From Candidatus Gastranaerophilales bacterium (GTDB taxonomy: Bacteria; Cyanobacteriota; Vampirovibrionia; Gastranaerophilales; Gastranaerophilaceae), in assembly GCA_963931255.1 (NCBI GenBank), contig OZ006972.1:1204421-1268420 (forward strand): DNA of 64,000 nucleotides, read 5' to 3'. The translations under genes were made by a program, and so were the position numbers. Positions 16,035-59,023 of this stretch are shown here, piece after piece. The notes beneath the pieces were generated by a model that did no database searches, had not been told where the DNA came from, and saw nothing but the letters and a program-made list of their open reading frames with translations. Positions within the stretch are counted from its first letter, which is position 1. Each line of letters starts with the position of its first letter.

Positions 16035-16268
16035 TTAATCAATACCGTTAACCAATTCCGATAATTTTATATTCAGGGCACGGGCTATGCGGTGTAAAGT
16101 TATAATTGTAGGTGCTTTTTCTGCTCGTTCAATACATCCGATAAAATTTCTCGCAGAATTAATTTTAAATGCTAAATCTTCTTGCGATATGCCGTTTTTT
16201 AATCTGTGTGTTCTTATATTTTGTCCTAACTTTATAAGTAGCTGAGCTTTTTCTTTTGCTTGACTCAT
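16035..16268 (-). CDS. XRE-family helix-turn-helix transcriptional regulator
   Basis: 77 aa. LGQNIRTHRLKNGISQEDLAFKINSARNFIGCIERAEKAPTIITLHRIARAL. Confidence 0.85.
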   Translation of the reverse strand: MSQAKEKAQLLIKLGQNIRTHRLKNGISQEDLAFKINSARNFIGCIERAEKAPTIITLHRIARALNIKLSELVNGID

Positions 16269-16318
16269 ACCACCTATTGTGGTACATTATTATAGAAGTT
16301 ACTACCACCTATAGGTGT
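16268..16318. promoter_or_regulatory. two palindromic putative operators in the divergent XRE / pilin-like intergenic region
   Basis: TACCAC-CTATT-GTGGTA at 16268-16284. CACCTATAGGTG (perfect 12-bp palindrome) at 16307-16318. Both begin with the direct repeat TACCACCTAT, 35 bp apart. Confidence 0.5.
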
Positions 16319-16329
16319 CATGGAGGTAT

Positions 16330-16995
16330 ATGAAAAAAGCTTTTACTCTTGCAGAGGTTTTGATTACTTTAGGAATAATAGGTGTGGTTGCAGCAATGAC
16401 ACTCCCTACTCTAATTCAGGATTATAAAAATAAAGTTGTTGAAACCCGTCTGGCGCATTTTTATTCTGTTATGAATCAGGCAATCAGGCTGTCTGAAGTT
16501 GAAAACGGTGATAAATCATATTGGTTTAATGAACACGCTGGAGGCTGGAATGAAGATCATACTGAAAATGCTAAATTAGTCTGGCTTGAAAAGTATATAT
16601 TACCATATATGAATGGAGTTAAATGCGTTATTCATGACGATATGTACCAGGAGTTACCTGTTTGTTATTTACCTAACGGCGGCGCGTTTGCCAGTTATAA
16701 TACTGCAGTTAACAGAGATTGGATATATTGGACCGGAGATCCCAGAAAGTGTAATCCGCATCATACTGAAAATATTGGAACTTGTTCATTTGCTTTTTTC
16801 TATAATCCTAATTCTAAATCTAATTCATTAAAAAATAGTATAGAACCGTGGAAACTCGGGTGGGATGGCACGAAAGAAATGCTATACCGTGAATGTATGA
16901 ATAATGAAGAAACTTATGACAGACCTTGTGCTGCCATAATTCAATATAACGGTTGGAAAATCCCTGATGATTACCCGTATAAGGTCAGATATTAA
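16330..16995 (+). CDS. prepilin-type N-terminal cleavage/methylation domain protein (type IV pilin / T2SS pseudopilin-like)
   Basis: Trimmed to MKKAFTLAEVLITLGIIGVVAAMTLP (ATG 16330, GGAGG at 16322-16326). Class III signal peptide with Glu at +5 of the predicted mature end. Cys-containing globular C-terminal part. Confidence 0.85.
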   Translation: MKKAFTLAEVLITLGIIGVVAAMTLPTLIQDYKNKVVETRLAHFYSVMNQAIRLSEVENGDKSYWFNEHAGGWNEDHTENAKLVWLEKYILPYMNGVKCVIHDDMYQELPVCYLPNGGAFASYNTAVNRDWIYWTGDPRKCNPHHTENIGTCSFAFFYNPNSKSNSLKNSIEPWKLGWDGTKEMLYRECMNNEETYDRPCAAIIQYNGWKIPDDYPYKVRY

Positions 16996-17023: not shown

Positions 17024-17067
17024 TTGACGGATTTTCAGCAAACGTGGTAAAATAGAGTATCACACAC
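17024..17067 (+). promoter_or_regulatory. sigma70-like extended -10 promoter plus conserved initial transcribed sequence; copy 1 of a repeated element
   Basis: TTGACG-GATTTT-N9-TGG-TAAAAT-AGAGTATCACACAC. A near-identical element lies at 38192-38235. Confidence 0.6.
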
Positions 17068-17108
17068 CTCAACAAAGAATTGCCGGAAAGGAATTTCAGG
17101 CAAAATTT

Positions 17109-17744
17109 ATGAGTACAAATCCTATTATACCTTATACGTTTGTCCCCGGTACAAAGGCAAAGGCACAGGAAATTAACGCAAATTTTATCTCTGTTGCTGA
17201 CCAGATTCAGACTAATAGCGATTATGTGAACCAAAAGGTGAGCGAACTGGATGATGCAATTACGCTTGCTGTTACAAATTCAGATAATCATTTTGACGAT
17301 GTGGAAGAAACACTTGAGACAAAAGCCAATAAAGATTTGTCAAATATTACGAAACTTGCATCAACTTCTGCAAAAGGGCTTACGTGGTTTGGAACGGCTA
17401 CAGGTAACGTTGCCGCCACAAGACCTGCAGTTATTGTGACTGCATACAGTTCCGGTTCTACATGGTACAGGCTATATTCTGACAAATGGATTGAACAGGG
17501 CGGCATTACTGCAACAAGTAACAGTGCAGATTCCACTGTAACCATTACATTCCCGAAAGCTTTTAAAGATACAAATTATTCATTCCGTTACTCGGCACTG
17601 TGTAGTGATCTTGTGTATAACACATATTATTTCCCGAAACTTGATGTAGGCAGTTATACGTCAGCTAAAAATGCAAATCTGCAGTTAATGCTTGCTGCCA
17701 AGTTTAAACGTGTTGTCTGGTCTGCAGCGGGTTATATAAATTAA
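17109..17744 (+). CDS. phage tail-fibre-like protein
   Basis: The N-terminus PYTFVPGTKAKAQEINANF resembles the start of many prophage tail-fibre proteins. The C-terminal STWYRLYSDKWIEQGG...VTITFPKAFKDTNYSF resembles the short-tail-fibre C-terminal knob pattern (W-Y-R-x-Y-S-D-G-W-x-E-Q-G-G). Both matches are from memory and need an HMM check. Confidence 0.5.
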   Translation: MSTNPIIPYTFVPGTKAKAQEINANFISVADQIQTNSDYVNQKVSELDDAITLAVTNSDNHFDDVEETLETKANKDLSNITKLASTSAKGLTWFGTATGNVAATRPAVIVTAYSSGSTWYRLYSDKWIEQGGITATSNSADSTVTITFPKAFKDTNYSFRYSALCSDLVYNTYYFPKLDVGSYTSAKNANLQLMLAAKFKRVVWSAAGYIN

Positions 17745-17765: not shown

Positions 17766-18110
17766 ATGTCATATACTGATGAAGCTTATACACAGATGGC
17801 AATTCAAGCCAATGAAACAGGTAAAATGCTCTATATTGTGAACGGAGAATTAGAGATTAATGAACCGGATTACTACATCTGTATCGGGAATACTAACGAA
17901 ACTGACGGAACATTAAATCCTGATTTCGGTAAAGTTAATAAAGATTTGCAAATTGCACAAATTCAGGAGCAGTTGTTTATGCTGGATCAGAAACGCATCA
18001 GGGCTGTTTGTGAGCCTGAATTGAAAGATACGGAATCCGGTGAAACATGGCTTGAATATTATAATGCTCAAATAGTTGAACTCCGTAATCAGCTTGCGGA
18101 ACTTCAATAA
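17766..18110 (+). CDS. hypothetical protein; by position and size possibly a tail-fibre assembly/chaperone-like protein
   Basis: AAGGAG 8 nt upstream. 114 aa with a helical C-terminus (LDQKRIRAVCEPELKD...YYNAQIVELRNQLAELQ). Followed by a terminator. The function call rests on context only. Confidence 0.35.
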   Translation: MSYTDEAYTQMAIQANETGKMLYIVNGELEINEPDYYICIGNTNETDGTLNPDFGKVNKDLQIAQIQEQLFMLDQKRIRAVCEPELKDTESGETWLEYYNAQIVELRNQLAELQ

Positions 18111-18117
18111 TTTTTCT

Positions 18118-18147
18118 AAAGACCGGTAAAACTGCCGGTCTTTTTTT
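18118..18147 (+). terminator. intrinsic terminator
   Basis: AAAGACCGG / CCGGTCTTT stem with an 8-nt loop, then a T7 run. Confidence 0.8.
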
Positions 18148-38150: not shown

Positions 38151-38191
38151 ACCCCGATTATACCTTAAAAAAATATTTTGTACAAAGCGGC

Positions 38192-38235
38192 TGGACAGAT
38201 TTTGCGTTTATATGGTATAATAGAGTGTCACACAC
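38192..38235 (+). promoter_or_regulatory. sigma70-like extended -10 promoter plus conserved initial transcribed sequence; copy 2
   Basis: TGGACA-GATTTT-N9-TGG-TATAAT-AGAGTGTCACACAC. Same spacing as the copy at 17024-17067. Confidence 0.6.
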
Positions 38236-38276
38236 ACAAGAATTTCCCCTTGTTCCTCTAATGAAAGGAACAAAAA

Positions 38277-38939
38277 ATGGGCAAAAAAAGTAAATACCCC
38301 GCATTTTCTAACGGTGCAGTTTCCGTAAACGGTCAGACTATAGCAACTACCAGTAAAAACGGCAATACTGTCACCACAAATTATAATATGTCTGATTCTG
38401 AAAAAAATCTTTATGATTATGTACAAAATTCTTTTACAGATTCTCTGAAAAACGTTAATGTATTTGATGATGACACAAAAAAGAATTTACAGGCACAGGT
38501 TGACGCTTATACAAATAAAGGTTTGGATTTAATCAACGATACCTATACACCTATGATTAATGACCTTAAAAATGACATAGCGTCAAGATTCGGGAACTTT
38601 GACAATTCCGTATTTATGGATAACTTAAATTCAATCGAAAGCAACAGAGCTGATGCTATGAATTCTCTTGCACAGGACGTGTTGACACAACAGTCAAATT
38701 TGATTAATGATGAACTTTCGCGGCGTTATAATTATTTGAATTTATTGAGCGGAACTCAAAACCAGATGATAAATAATATTATGAGTTATCTCGGTGCTGC
38801 TATGCAAAACAGTTCTGCCGGCAACTCTTACAATCAGGCTAGCTATAACGCAACAAACGGCGGCGGTGGCGGGTCATCGATTGATTACGCAAATCTTCTT
38901 TCTACAATAGGGCAGGCTTTTTTAAAGTCACGATTTTAA
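38277..38939 (+). CDS. hypothetical Asn/Gln/Ser-rich protein (220 aa) with a C-terminal GGGGG tract
   Basis: AAAGGAA 7 nt upstream. No signal peptide. NQMINNIMSYLGAAMQNSSAGNSYNQASYNATNGGGGGSSIDYANLLSTIGQAFLKSRF. Followed by a terminator. Confidence 0.75.
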   Translation: MGKKSKYPAFSNGAVSVNGQTIATTSKNGNTVTTNYNMSDSEKNLYDYVQNSFTDSLKNVNVFDDDTKKNLQAQVDAYTNKGLDLINDTYTPMINDLKNDIASRFGNFDNSVFMDNLNSIESNRADAMNSLAQDVLTQQSNLINDELSRRYNYLNLLSGTQNQMINNIMSYLGAAMQNSSAGNSYNQASYNATNGGGGGSSIDYANLLSTIGQAFLKSRF

Positions 38940-38945
38940 ATAGCG

Positions 38946-38969
38946 GCGGGGAAGAAATTCCCCGCTTTT
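38946..38969 (+). terminator. intrinsic terminator
   Basis: GCGGGGAA-GAAA-TTCCCCGC followed by TTTT. Confidence 0.8.
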
Positions 38970-47964: not shown

Positions 47965-48330
47965 ATGTATTTCTTTATTGCAATAATTTTCATAGCAGAA
48001 TTAATTATCACGGCGACTGTGCTGTTTTTTATCACAATGGCTGACAAAAAGGTCTGCGTACTTTCTCAAAAGGTGCTTGAATCGAAAGACGGCTTGATTG
48101 AAGATGTAAAAACAGTCAGATGCGTAATAATTCAGGTAAAAGAAAAAATTGTTTCAGGCATTGAATATCTGGAAAGAAAAAAACGCAGATATCAAATTAA
48201 TATGATTAAAAATATACTAATGTATGTTTTGCTATTTAGCCTGAAAGGACGATGCAAAAAAGCTGCATCTATATGTAGCATGATTGCAATGGCAAAGGAT
48301 TTTTATGACAAAAATTATGCAAACGCATGA
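47965..48330 (+). CDS. small hypothetical membrane protein
   Basis: N-terminal TM segment MYFFIAIIFIAELIITATVLFFI and a second hydrophobic helix. No motif recognised. Confidence 0.5.
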   Translation: MYFFIAIIFIAELIITATVLFFITMADKKVCVLSQKVLESKDGLIEDVKTVRCVIIQVKEKIVSGIEYLERKKRRYQINMIKNILMYVLLFSLKGRCKKAASICSMIAMAKDFYDKNYANA

Positions 48331-48395
48331 CTTGCCGATTGTAATTGCTCCGACAATATGTTATAATAAGTAAACGAAAGACGAGGTTGATTATT

Positions 48396-48710
48396 ATGAG
48401 TAAAAATAAATCTTTTATGTTCGGAATGGGGCTTTTGGCAGGTGTTGTCGGCGGTATAGTTGCCGGCGTTCTGTTTGCGCCTAAACCGGGAGAAGAATCA
48501 AGAAGAGAGCTTAAAGAAGCTGCCTGTGAATTGTATGAAAAACATTCTCCGGCTATTAAAGAAGCTAAAAAACAAGCTCTTGAATCTGTTGATTTGATGA
48601 AATATAAATTGGAAAGACAATTGAGAAAATTCAATAATATGGTTAAATCCAGAAAGTTGTTGAAAGCTAAAGAACTTGAATCTTCTGCCGATGATGAGTA
48701 CGAATACTAA
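48396..48710 (+). CDS. YtxH-domain protein
   Basis: Trimmed to MSKNKSFMFGMGLLAGVVGGIVAGVLFAPKPGEESRRELKE (ACGAGG 9 nt upstream). Confidence 0.8.
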   Translation: MSKNKSFMFGMGLLAGVVGGIVAGVLFAPKPGEESRRELKEAACELYEKHSPAIKEAKKQALESVDLMKYKLERQLRKFNNMVKSRKLLKAKELESSADDEYEY

Positions 48711-48727
48711 CTATAAGGAAAAATTGA

Positions 48728-49087
48728 ATGGAACTATCTCAAATAGCTTTAAATCAAGGATTGACCTTTCTCGCCTGGGCAACCGGTGTTATTGTAATAG
48801 TTGTCGGCGTGTTTCTGGTTAAACTCCTGTATGATTTATCAACTCTGGCAAAGAATGTAAATGAGACATCATTACTTTTGAATAAAGAACTAAGGCCTGC
48901 TATTTATGAACTCAAAGAAACATTAGAGGCTGTAAATTCTATTATTCGCAGTACAGATAAAGGTGTTGATTCTTTGAAAACAGCCGTGGAAAATGTTTTT
49001 GGAAAAACAAAAATGATTTCCGAATCACTCTTCAACGGTATTATGAAAGGGTTTGTCACTGTAATGGGTTTATTTTCGAAAAAATAA
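48728..49087 (+). CDS. DUF948-like membrane protein
   Basis: N-terminal TM segment (LAWATGVIVIVVGVFLV) followed by helical LSTLAKNVNETSLLLNKELRPAIYELKETLEAVN. Sits between two YtxH genes. Confidence 0.55.
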   Translation: MELSQIALNQGLTFLAWATGVIVIVVGVFLVKLLYDLSTLAKNVNETSLLLNKELRPAIYELKETLEAVNSIIRSTDKGVDSLKTAVENVFGKTKMISESLFNGIMKGFVTVMGLFSKK

Positions 49088-49165
49088 CTAGCCCTAATCG
49101 GGGGTGCATAAATCCGTAAAACGAATTAAAGTAAATATGAATAAAAGAAAAGGAGTGAATTAATT

Positions 49166-49435
49166 ATGTCAGCAACAAAATTTTTAGCAGGTTTTTTGGT
49201 AGGCGGTGCTATAGGCGCTGTAGCAGGTATTCTTCTTGCTCCAAAATCCGGTGAAGAAACCCGCGCAATGATTGCAGACACTGCAAAAGATGTTGCAAAA
49301 CGTGCAGATGCAACTGTAAAAGAAATTCAGGCAAAAGCCGATGATGTTGTTTCTGATATGCAGAAAAAAGGCGATGAAATTAAAGAAAAATTACAAAACC
49401 TTATTAATCAGCAAAAACAGGAACAGGAAGCTTAA
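49166..49435 (+). CDS. YtxH-domain protein
   Basis: FLAGFLVGGAIGAVAGILLAPKSGEETRAMIADTAKD. AAGGAG upstream. Confidence 0.85.
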   Translation: MSATKFLAGFLVGGAIGAVAGILLAPKSGEETRAMIADTAKDVAKRADATVKEIQAKADDVVSDMQKKGDEIKEKLQNLINQQKQEQEA

Positions 49436-58953: not shown

Positions 58954-59023
58954 CCTATAAAATGCAGATGTACTGTATATTTTACACGGGTTAGCCTTGA
59001 CAAACATGCTATAATAAAATTAT

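Follow-up and report, generated by a model that had tools for sequence, protein, structure and literature searches.

We analysed two near-identical control regions that lie within a 64-kb stretch of ordinary Gastranaerophilales chromosome (G+C 37%), hereafter the window. Copy 1 (17024–17067) stands before g211, a gene for a 211-amino acid (aa) tail-fibre-like protein upstream of tyrS, and copy 2 (38192–38235) before g220, a gene for a 220-aa, Asn/Gln-rich protein upstream of mnmE. We refer to the g211 locus and its orthologues as g1, and to the g220 locus and its orthologues as g2. Read directly from the sequence, both copies are present as the original prediction quoted them, and two of its further details are confirmed: the spacing is identical, with a −35 hexamer, an 18-nucleotide (nt) spacer and a TG-extended −10 in each copy, and an (A)CAAGAATT string follows downstream in both. 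The two copies are best read, from sequence comparison, as homologous promoter-plus-leader modules.

Both units lie on the + strand and are built alike. Unit 1 opens with the −35 hexamer TTGACG (17024–17029), invariant in four species, which is followed directly by a GATTTT block (17030–17035) that is invariant in g1 orthologues and persists as GATTTY in g2 orthologues down to 59–64% protein identity. The extended −10, TGGTAAAAT, lies at 17045–17053, and a TATCACACAC block, also invariant in four species, spans the putative transcription start (17058–17067). A leader block, ACAAAGAATT (17072–17081), recognised by alignment, folding and four-species conservation, marks the end of a predicted unpaired CA/A-rich 5′ tail. 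It runs into a predicted hairpin, TTGCC-GGAAAGGAATTTCA-GGCAA (17080–17103), which holds the Shine-Dalgarno (SD) sequence GAAAGGAA (17086–17093). The unit continues with g211 (17109–17744), whose product has an N-terminal helix and a Gp53-like C-terminal beta domain by homology and modelling, and with g114 (17766–18110), a 114-aa gene always found downstream of g211. It ends before tyrS at a predicted intrinsic terminator-like hairpin (11 bp) with a T tract (18118–18143).

Unit 2 stands back to back with the promoter of a divergent TPR gene, whose −35, TGTACA, occupies 38179–38184 on the − strand. Its own promoter comprises the −35 hexamer TGGACA (38192–38197), the GATTTT block (38198–38203) and the extended −10 TGGTATAAT (38213–38221). 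At a fixed distance from the −10 comes the TGTCACACAC block at the putative transcription start (38226–38235), followed by the leader block ACAAGAATT, identified by alignment (38236–38244), and by a hairpin, TTGTTCCT-[8 nt]-AGGAACAA (38250–38273), predicted to sequester the SD GAAAGGAA (38263–38270). The g220 gene (38277–38939) encodes a protein homologous to the N-terminal ∼150–190 residues of phage fibres that end in Peptidase_S74. A predicted terminator-like hairpin (9 bp, six of them GC) with a T tract (38945–38966) closes the unit before mnmE.

Both promoters have the arrangement of sigma-70 extended −10 promoters, with hexamers 16–18 nt apart and TG one base upstream of the −10. They score 10/12 (TTGACG-18-TAAAAT) and 11/12 (TGGACA-18-TATAAT) as sigma-70-like sites, both with the TG, and each is the top promoter-like site of its region. 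The likeness between the copies extends well beyond these generic parts. In pairwise alignment it sets in ∼10 nt before the −35, continues across the −10 and a TRTCACACAC block as far as the (A)CAAGAATT string, and resumes at the ribosome-binding site (RBS). This last block, overlooked in the first reading, is the octamer GAAAGGAA, which occurs twice in 64 kb on both strands taken together, at 17086 and 38263, that is, in the SD regions of g211 and g220. About 30 common positions lie outside the generic hexamers, in GATTTT, TRTCACACAC, ACAAAGAATT and GAAAGGAA.

The combination is confined to these two sites. The pattern GATTTT-N9-TGGTAWAATAGAGTRTCACACAC has exactly two matches in the window, at 17030–17067 and 38198–38235, both on the + strand; there is no third at up to three mismatches, and 100 dinucleotide-preserving shuffles yielded 0.00 matches. 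Searched alone with up to two mismatches, the 14-nt block after the −10 returns only the same two sites in the window, against 0.29 expected, and just these two of the 36 TGnTAnAAT sites in the window carry the flanking blocks. The absence of a further copy in the window, reported at first reading, holds in regular-expression, mismatch and profile (nhmmer) searches alike. Chance likeness between two AT-rich intergenic regions has nothing in its favour beyond the low G+C of the window; the empty shuffles and the independent evidence of conservation in orthologues refute it, leaving it a negligible probability.

A profile built from nine distinct instances of the element (46 positions) was run with nhmmer against 200,625 bases, made up of the window and orthologous neighbourhoods and including the housekeeping loci rpsO, groES/groEL, acpP and rpmF. 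It recovered exactly those nine g1 and g2 sites (E 2e-14 to 2e-10) and, beyond them, nothing at E<1. Because the profile matches only g1 and g2 although housekeeping loci were included, the element is not the local strong-promoter consensus, as far as ∼200 kb shows. The view that this is no generic promoter is thereby upheld: within this related DNA the element is specific to two loci, and the spread before many unrelated housekeeping genes that would have spoken against that view is not seen.

The original prediction also drew attention to conservation past the −10 and called for a comparison with related genomes. Congeneric orthologues keep both the g1 and the g2 elements, and the pattern is that of purifying selection. 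For g1 we compared the window with the congeneric loci L008, L010 and L011 (tyrS protein identity 97.5, 96.8 and 90.4%). Across these four species 67 of 80 aligned promoter and leader positions are invariant, compared with 34 of 139 fourfold-degenerate tyrS sites (24.5%). Identity to the window is 85–88% in the promoter and leader, 65–74% in the g211 coding sequence and 81–86% in tyrS DNA. The 13 variable positions fall mainly in the spacer (seven), in the discriminator (three of its four positions) and after CACACAC (two or three). At g2, the orthologues L016 (mnmE 93.8% identical) and L031 keep CTGGACAGATTTY, TGGTATAAT and TATCACACA(C/T) with spacing unchanged. In all nine instances the TRTCACACAC block begins a constant 4 nt after the −10, and insertions or deletions occur only after the block.

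This fixed geometry is one of several points that favour a DNA operator. TRTCACACAC, possibly with GATTTT and the ACACG of the spacer, could bind a dedicated factor that covers the start site and so holds down, or switches on, the two units together, the conservation of the leader being secondary. GATTTT, which RNA polymerase does not contact, and the 9-nt spacer CAAAACACG, which is identical in L011 g1 and L032 g2, are conserved between different loci and different genera. Copy 2 contains a small palindrome, GTGT-C-ACAC, and the block is clade-specific at both loci, as if it co-evolved with a clade-specific factor. However, most instances read TATCACACAC, which is neither palindromic nor repeated, and there is no conserved dyad or second half-site, although a monomeric binder would still fit. 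No regulator gene is conserved beside either locus; the HTH_3 gene adjacent to copy 1 (16035–16268) is strain-variable: of six strain contigs with the promoter in place, five lack it. The entire g1 leader is invariant as far as the ATG, beyond the block at +1, and an operator leaves that unexplained. We regard an operator as a real possibility, if not the outcome that we expect. Several familiar sites were tried by eye at the element and rejected: a DnaA box (one base off), an NtcA site GTA-N8-TAC (the third base of the second half misfits), a CRP/FNR site TGTGA-N6-TCACA (no dyad), and a CodY box (10/15, typical of AT-rich DNA).

In more distant relatives the promoter architecture and the SD hairpin are retained and the leader sequences differ. 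The g2 regions of L012, L013 and L032 (mnmE 79–81%) read TATCAACGCC and lack TRTCACACAC, and that of L014 (mnmE 72%) has neither the GATTTT nor the TRTCACACAC block. At g1, L034 (tyrS 81%) reads TTGACTAAATTTT-N8-TGGTATAAT-GGGC-TTACCAGC, and L028 shows simply TTGACC-N17-TATAAT. The g1 leader of L034 is similar to the g2 leaders of L012 and L032 (TTCATWWAATTTTTG…CGGAAAGG; z 8.1 and 6.8 against shuffles), whereas its likeness to the window-clade g2 leaders reaches z ∼2. If L034 belongs to the L012/L032 clade, this hints that g1 and g2 leaders may change together clade by clade; we treat it as a lead.

Wider searches brought little that resembles the full element. A scan of GTDB species-representative genomes with GTANAATAGAGTNTCACACAC gave a single match, on an unrelated Solibacteraceae contig and judged to be chance; the query left too little latitude, since species differ in the AGAG discriminator. 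In JGI metagenomes, GATTT-N10-TGGTAWAAT-N4-TRTCACAC found one 1.4-kb contig of similar architecture with no gene downstream (L018, JGI24699J35502_11016359; profile E 4.5e-5 in a small database). At 1357–1427 on its − strand it reads GTGACTGATTTT-N9-TGGTATAAT-GTCC-TGTCACAC, with an inverted TGTGTGTGACA ∼55 nt upstream and no obvious open reading frame (ORF) downstream. In IMG/VR, nine matches to the −10 plus block were judged chance, since they have no −35/GATTTT context. The −35 to −10 part matched one phage group with TTGACGGATTTT-N9-TGGTATAAT before an ImmA-like gene, with no downstream block; as ∼6 chance matches are expected by estimate, we rejected this as a link to the element. In that group (UViG_3300045988, L038 966–1529; also L039 and L042), TTGACGGATTTTTTAGAATGGTGGTATAAT precedes a gene for an ImmA/IrrE-like HEXXH peptidase and is nearly the L010 g1 promoter without the downstream block, which may reflect chance or a phage of a related host. 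GenBank phages gave no blastn match to the element. A promoter and leader shared by co-expressed genes is a known kind of arrangement; this lineage-specific instance is new, with no match in Rfam, GenBank phages or IMG/VR.

How the two regions came to be alike can be approached through the states that set them apart. TTGACG and TAAAAT in g1, and TGGACA or TTTACA and TATAAT in g2, are stable across species, so recent gene conversion between the loci is not the cause of their identity, and their homogenisation as a whole is improbable. The window's own two spacers have diverged from each other, whereas L011 g1 and L032 g2, different loci in different genera, have the 9-nt spacer CAAAACACG in common. 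Upstream of the −35, L008 g1 reads TGTACAAATCGGCT, matching TGTACAAAGCGGCT of the g2 promoters, in which TGTACA is the −35 of the divergent TPR gene; the string TGTACAAA(T/G)CGGCT is common to L008 g1 and the g2 promoters, and TGTACAAA-CGGCT is the string at the divergent −35 beside copy 2. In the simplest history compatible with these sequences, one locus, probably g2, supplied the other with a copy of its promoter-leader fragment, and selection then kept both. We favour g2 as the source because homologues of g220 are far more numerous than those of g211 (>568 against 10 in a word-index search). The g211 and g220 proteins are unrelated (hhalign probability 0.1), so the control region alone is shared.

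Alternatively, the likeness could be a mere remnant of a promoter fragment duplicated long ago, or the two regions could have converged on the lineage's optimal strong promoter, with neither shared regulation nor a leader function. The −35 and TG-extended −10 are indeed generic, in more distant relatives both genes stand behind ordinary promoters that share the architecture and lack TRTCACACAC, and the IMG/VR phage carries its match before an unrelated gene. Against this stand the ∼30 positions shared outside the hexamers and the lack of any similar promoter in 200 kb. Moreover, the blocks are invariant where ∼75% of fourfold-degenerate sites changed in at least one lineage, and the spacer meanwhile diverged freely. 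We therefore consider descent or convergence without function improbable.

The original prediction held that the element drives both of its downstream genes, and the surrounding sequences agree, with a correction to the extent of the units. Each copy appears to head its own unit of promoter, ∼50-nt leader, gene or genes and terminator; these units would be g211-g114 and g220, and tyrS and mnmE lie beyond the predicted terminators. Elsewhere the gap is filled by foreign genes: L011 has an extra opposite-strand gene between g114 and tyrS, and the sister-species loci L016 and L017 have two, a RloB and AAA_21 pair, between g220 and mnmE. Terminators and insertions together argue that the element drives g211-g114 and g220 and not the housekeeping genes. 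Strains of the same species show three distinct upstream contexts, all of which meet the conserved sequence at the −35 or within 17 nt of it, so the promoter travels with its gene. The RloB and AAA_21 pair (L016 6521–8584; L017 3540–5603) is defence-like in its own right.

On its upstream side copy 1 is flanked by the strain-variable HTH_3 gene and a DUF6613 prepilin-like gene, with pheA further upstream; downstream of g211 lie g114, tyrS and a hexapeptide transferase gene. Copy 2 lies between the divergent TPR gene and g220, and mnmE follows. The HTH_3 and DUF6613 module (16035–16995), whose DUF6613 product bears a prepilin methylation motif at its N-terminus, sits as an insertion immediately before the copy 1 promoter in the window and in L004 and is absent from five other contigs of the same species. 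A similar pair occurs downstream of mnmE in the CAG:439 relative (L012/L013, 12157–13343). The rest of the window holds cysS, murJ, spoIID, lipB, nusB, alr and similar genes, and Pfam and PHROG annotation reveals no cluster of phage capsid, tail or lysis genes in the 64 kb.

The description of the first gene as tail-fibre-like is supported by homologues bearing PF21882 (Gp53-like_C) and by matches of its model to viral tail fibres. The N-terminus of the g211 protein reads PY(T/S)FVPGTKAKAxE(I/V)NANF and, with a long helix, precedes a C-terminal beta domain. It does not itself match PF21882 at E≤0.01 or reach the Pfam threshold; its C-terminal domain aligns with the homologues P0008 and P0009, which pass that threshold (36.7 and 34.8 bits against 24.9). 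An AlphaFold2 (AF2) model has a mean predicted local distance difference test (pLDDT) score of 58, rising to ∼70 in the C-terminal domain. It matches 19 viral BFVD models at E≤1e-3, mostly annotated as tail fibres, with gp53-like C-terminal proteins among them; in PDB it comes closest to the R2 pyocin fibre 6ct8 (E 3.7e-3). The C-terminal domain thus appears to have the fold of a receptor-binding tip, with the weight that a model of moderate quality allows. Sequence searches of PDB with g211 and g220 gave nothing below E 0.09, and the one match to g211 among GenBank phages, from a faecal phage whose record is unannotated, was weak (E 2e-3). Between pheA and tyrS, L034 carries a longer fibre of 369 aa (P0007, 1344–2453). 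Its likeness to g211 is confined to the first 47 residues (66% identity) and to the tip at the C-terminus (35%), so the middle segment has been swapped or inserted. The g114 protein has no Pfam or PHROG match; by its position alone it might be a fibre-assembly helper.

The second gene was at first called functionally obscure, and it has indeed no Pfam or PHROG match, including none to the PF13884 (Peptidase_S74) domain. It is less obscure through its family, whose homology to a phage virion fibre lies in the N-terminal part of that fibre. Among 1.84 billion representatives, a profile search found only 171 relatives at E≤0.001, with hmmsearch E-values of 1.3e-29 for P0181 and 1.6e-8 for P0251, and longer relatives (308–336 aa) carry a C-terminal Peptidase_S74 intramolecular chaperone domain (PF13884). 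Such domains are typical of phage fibres and tailspikes. Aligned by hhalign, the g220 family (A5) matches P0251 over 141 columns with a probability of 97.4 (E 9.4e-12). The gene for P0251 belongs to a structural module of podophage type: terminase, portal-like and major head genes lie upstream of it, and its neighbours are an SU10_adaptor gene on one side and large structural genes on the other. The homology covers the N-terminal or shaft part of virion fibres. The AF2 model of g220 (pLDDT 43.5) was unusable and was left out of the fold search, and tblastn with g220 found no match in GenBank phages. Its nearest named relative is ‘Fusobacterium sp. CAG:439’, a name still current at NCBI for a bin that, we take it, GTDB places in the Gastranaerophilales (Melainabacteria/Vampirovibrionia). 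An exact match to the g211 protein occurs on many metagenome contigs, one of them 2.28 Mb long. Many database entries for g220 orthologues (P0011, P0013 and P0016; L016 5716 and L031 961) are 24–41 residues too long, the extra N-terminal residues being translated promoter DNA, because gene callers extended the ORF upstream through promoter and leader.

Both units thus encode orphan phage-fibre-derived proteins at conserved core-genome positions, and this common derivation gives two otherwise unrelated genes a shared theme. Both evolve faster than their neighbours: g211 is 56–74% identical where tyrS is 90–97%, and g220 is 84% identical where mnmE is 94%.

Turning to the leader as RNA, a start 5–9 nt after the −10 would give an mRNA 5′ end of about (A/G)UCACACAC. 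Six leaders folded computationally have the same predicted layout, in which ∼17–20 nt of unpaired C/A-rich sequence precede a hairpin holding the SD. The minimum free energy (MFE) of the −45 to +6 segment is −11.8 and −11.4 kcal/mol for g211 and g220, ranks 2 and 3 of the 38 window genes; this is ∼2.8 standard deviations (sd) below the mean of the other 36 (−4.07, sd 2.7). Nine orthologous leaders have MFEs of −7.8 to −13.6 kcal/mol despite differing stems (TTGCC/GGCAA, ATGTC/GACAT, TTGTTCCT/AGGAACAA, TTGTCCCT/AGGGACAA and TTTTTGTTC/GAACAAAAA). Among g1 stems that of L028 is different (ATGTC/GACAT), and L034 has the same stem with another loop. At g2, L014 shows a compensatory double change from TTGTTCCT/AGGAACAA to TTGTCCCT/AGGGACAA, a single instance among few independent sequences. 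GGA motifs lie in the hairpin loop in g1 and in the 3′ arm in g2. Rfam 15 reports nothing at gathering thresholds in the whole window; at permissive thresholds copy 1 has only an opposite-strand match of 16 bits, where the gathering score is 70, and copy 2 has none. Two further features considered by eye were rejected: anti-SD mimicry by CACCTC, which is not conserved in orthologues, and a 10-codon upstream ORF from the TTG at 17080, whose frame is not conserved in L010.

At least six genes of the window have TATAAT or TAAAAT ending 6–8 nt before the ATG and no SD (38150(−), 41381(−), 44753(−), 59024(+), 60998(−) and 63981(−)), which suggests that leaderless mRNAs may be frequent in this organism. 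Next to several genes that look leaderless, the conserved ∼50-nt leaders of g211 and g220 stand out.

Taken together, these observations make it probable that the module is a strong extended −10 promoter with a conserved leader that co-expresses two orphan domesticated fibre genes. A near-consensus sigma-70-type promoter, with its −35, 18-nt spacer and TG-extended −10, would fire strongly without an activator. Transcripts starting within TRTCACACAC would carry a leader of ∼50 nt, of which the first part would be the unpaired CA/A-rich tail of ∼18–22 nt and the second the hairpin with the unusual SD GAAAGGAA just upstream of the ATG. The tail would offer a single-stranded landing site, as a standby or enhancer site, from which ribosomes could use the structured RBS. 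The predicted single-stranded 5′ segment beside a structured RBS is the layout of a standby site, and in Escherichia coli CA-repeat 5′ tails of 16–18 nt give maximal standby activity before a structured RBS (PMC5934652). Having the same sequence, the two mRNAs would be alike in start, stability and translation, and might answer to one trans-acting regulator, so that production of the two fibre-like proteins would coincide.

Several observations weigh against this account. Compared with shuffled sequences, the hairpins reach only modest z-scores (−1.3 to −2.3), and most of the g1 SD is in the loop, not the stem, so its sequestration would be weaker there. TRTCACACAC is limited to one genus-level clade (tyrS ≥90%, mnmE ≥94% aa identity). 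The search for further copies covered the 200,625 bases, in which the window represents ∼3% of the source genome (∼2.28 Mb), and copies may lie outside that DNA. Finally, a purely structural standby tail needs no conservation as strict as that of TATCACACAC and CAACAAAGAATT. Such strictness points to a sequence-specific partner, protein or RNA, that the standby account does not name, and TRTCACACAC may act either as DNA, as an operator or start-site context, or as RNA, as a standby site or the target of a regulator.

An RNA-level partner would make the leader the target of a shared post-transcriptional regulator: a G/U-rich small RNA (sRNA; …GUGUGUGA…) pairing with the C/A-rich tail in the manner of GcvB, or a GGA-binding protein in the manner of CsrA, switching translation of both genes. 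This would account for tail conservation that is specific to sequence and not merely to structure, and the GGA motifs of the hairpins and the common unusual SD GAAAGGAA suit it. C/A-rich upstream regions are known sRNA targets as well as translational enhancers (PMC5934652), and the possible clade-specific likeness of g1 and g2 leaders (L034 with L012/L032) points the same way. Conversely, the window contains no candidate sRNA or CsrA gene, its GTGTGTG strings are found in coding regions only, and the likeness of leaders would count only if L034 and L012/L032 share a clade or genome. We hold this explanation to be rather doubtful. Neither it nor an operator excludes a standby role for the tail.

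Comparison with known systems places the module more precisely. Like TG-extended −10 promoters of sigma-70 (group 1), the copies have a −35 (TTGACG or TGGACA), an 18-nt spacer and TGnTAWAAT. Unlike them, they have ∼30 extra conserved positions, in GATTTT after the −35, the 10-nt block 4 nt after the −10 and the leader blocks, that a generic promoter does not need. With standby sites and CA-rich enhancers, of which the MS2 coat and tisB leaders are models (Sterk et al. 2018, PMC5934652), the leaders share a predicted unpaired C/A-rich 5′ tail directly upstream of an SD hairpin. They differ in that the tail sequence itself is conserved, in an organism that is unrelated to E. coli and in which several genes look leaderless. 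A short hairpin just upstream of the start codon that holds a GGA or the SD is, as here, also a mark of CsrA-type leaders and of SD-sequestering RNA thermometers; the g211 and g220 leaders nevertheless match no Rfam family.

The proteins invite two further comparisons. The g211 C-terminus aligns with proteins bearing Gp53-like_C tips and its model matches viral tips, and the g220 family is matched by the N-terminal portion of proteins with PF13884, one of which comes from a podophage-like module. Unlike phage fibres, g211 stays below the Pfam threshold, g220 lacks the S74 domain, and both are single genes at conserved chromosomal positions outside prophages. The gene transfer agent (GTA) of Rhodobacter capsulatus, RcGTA, likewise has phage-derived fibre-type genes away from the phage cluster, at conserved chromosomal sites and, as appears to be the case here, under common control; when its core structural cluster is up-regulated, so are its genes for head spikes, tail fibres and lysis (PMC6363796). 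In contrast to RcGTA, the 64-kb window contains no capsid, tail or lysis cluster, no GafA-like activator was found, and the promoter looks constitutive rather than activator-dependent.

A few other features of the window deserve mention. CTTGAC or TTGAC lies just 1–5 nt upstream of an extended −10 (e.g. CTTGACAAATATGGTATAAT) at 59007(+), 62991(−) and 41396(−), too close for a normal −35; these promoters precede an OEP gene, a GGDEF-HD gene and a small HTH-like gene. An ORF of 1779 aa (2377–7716, +) has no Pfam and no PHROG match. Four small genes stand in a row at 47965–49435 (+; 121, 121, 119 and 89 aa), two of them YtxH-like and one DUF948.

How genes are regulated in the uncultured, non-photosynthetic relatives of cyanobacteria that live in the gut is almost unexplored. 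The element supplies a 45–90-nt cis-module under selection, two target units, and a thematic link between them in orphan, fast-evolving phage-fibre genes at conserved sites. The mechanism itself is ordinary; the finding rises above the routine through the pairing of the module with two unrelated domesticated fibre genes in such a lineage and through its clear evolutionary constraint. If it is merely a strong promoter with an optimised leader, its value would lie mainly in its use as an expression part for this clade. As a compact natural case of a CA-rich 5′ tail before a structured RBS, it is suited to heterologous reporters. We conjecture, with little confidence, that gut relatives of ‘Fusobacterium sp. 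CAG:439’ (probably Gastranaerophilales/Melainabacteria) have a small regulon of domesticated phage-fibre genes, peculiar to their lineage, and that the module is its cis-signature. Fast-evolving fibres at fixed core-genome positions might be co-produced to arm a phage-derived particle encoded elsewhere (tailocin- or GTA-like), or to serve as host surface fibres or phage decoys, with the leader co-evolving clade by clade with a dedicated trans-acting regulator. If such a regulon exists, genome scans with the module would list its other members and might bring to light a surface-fibre system or a phage-like machine that the host has domesticated.

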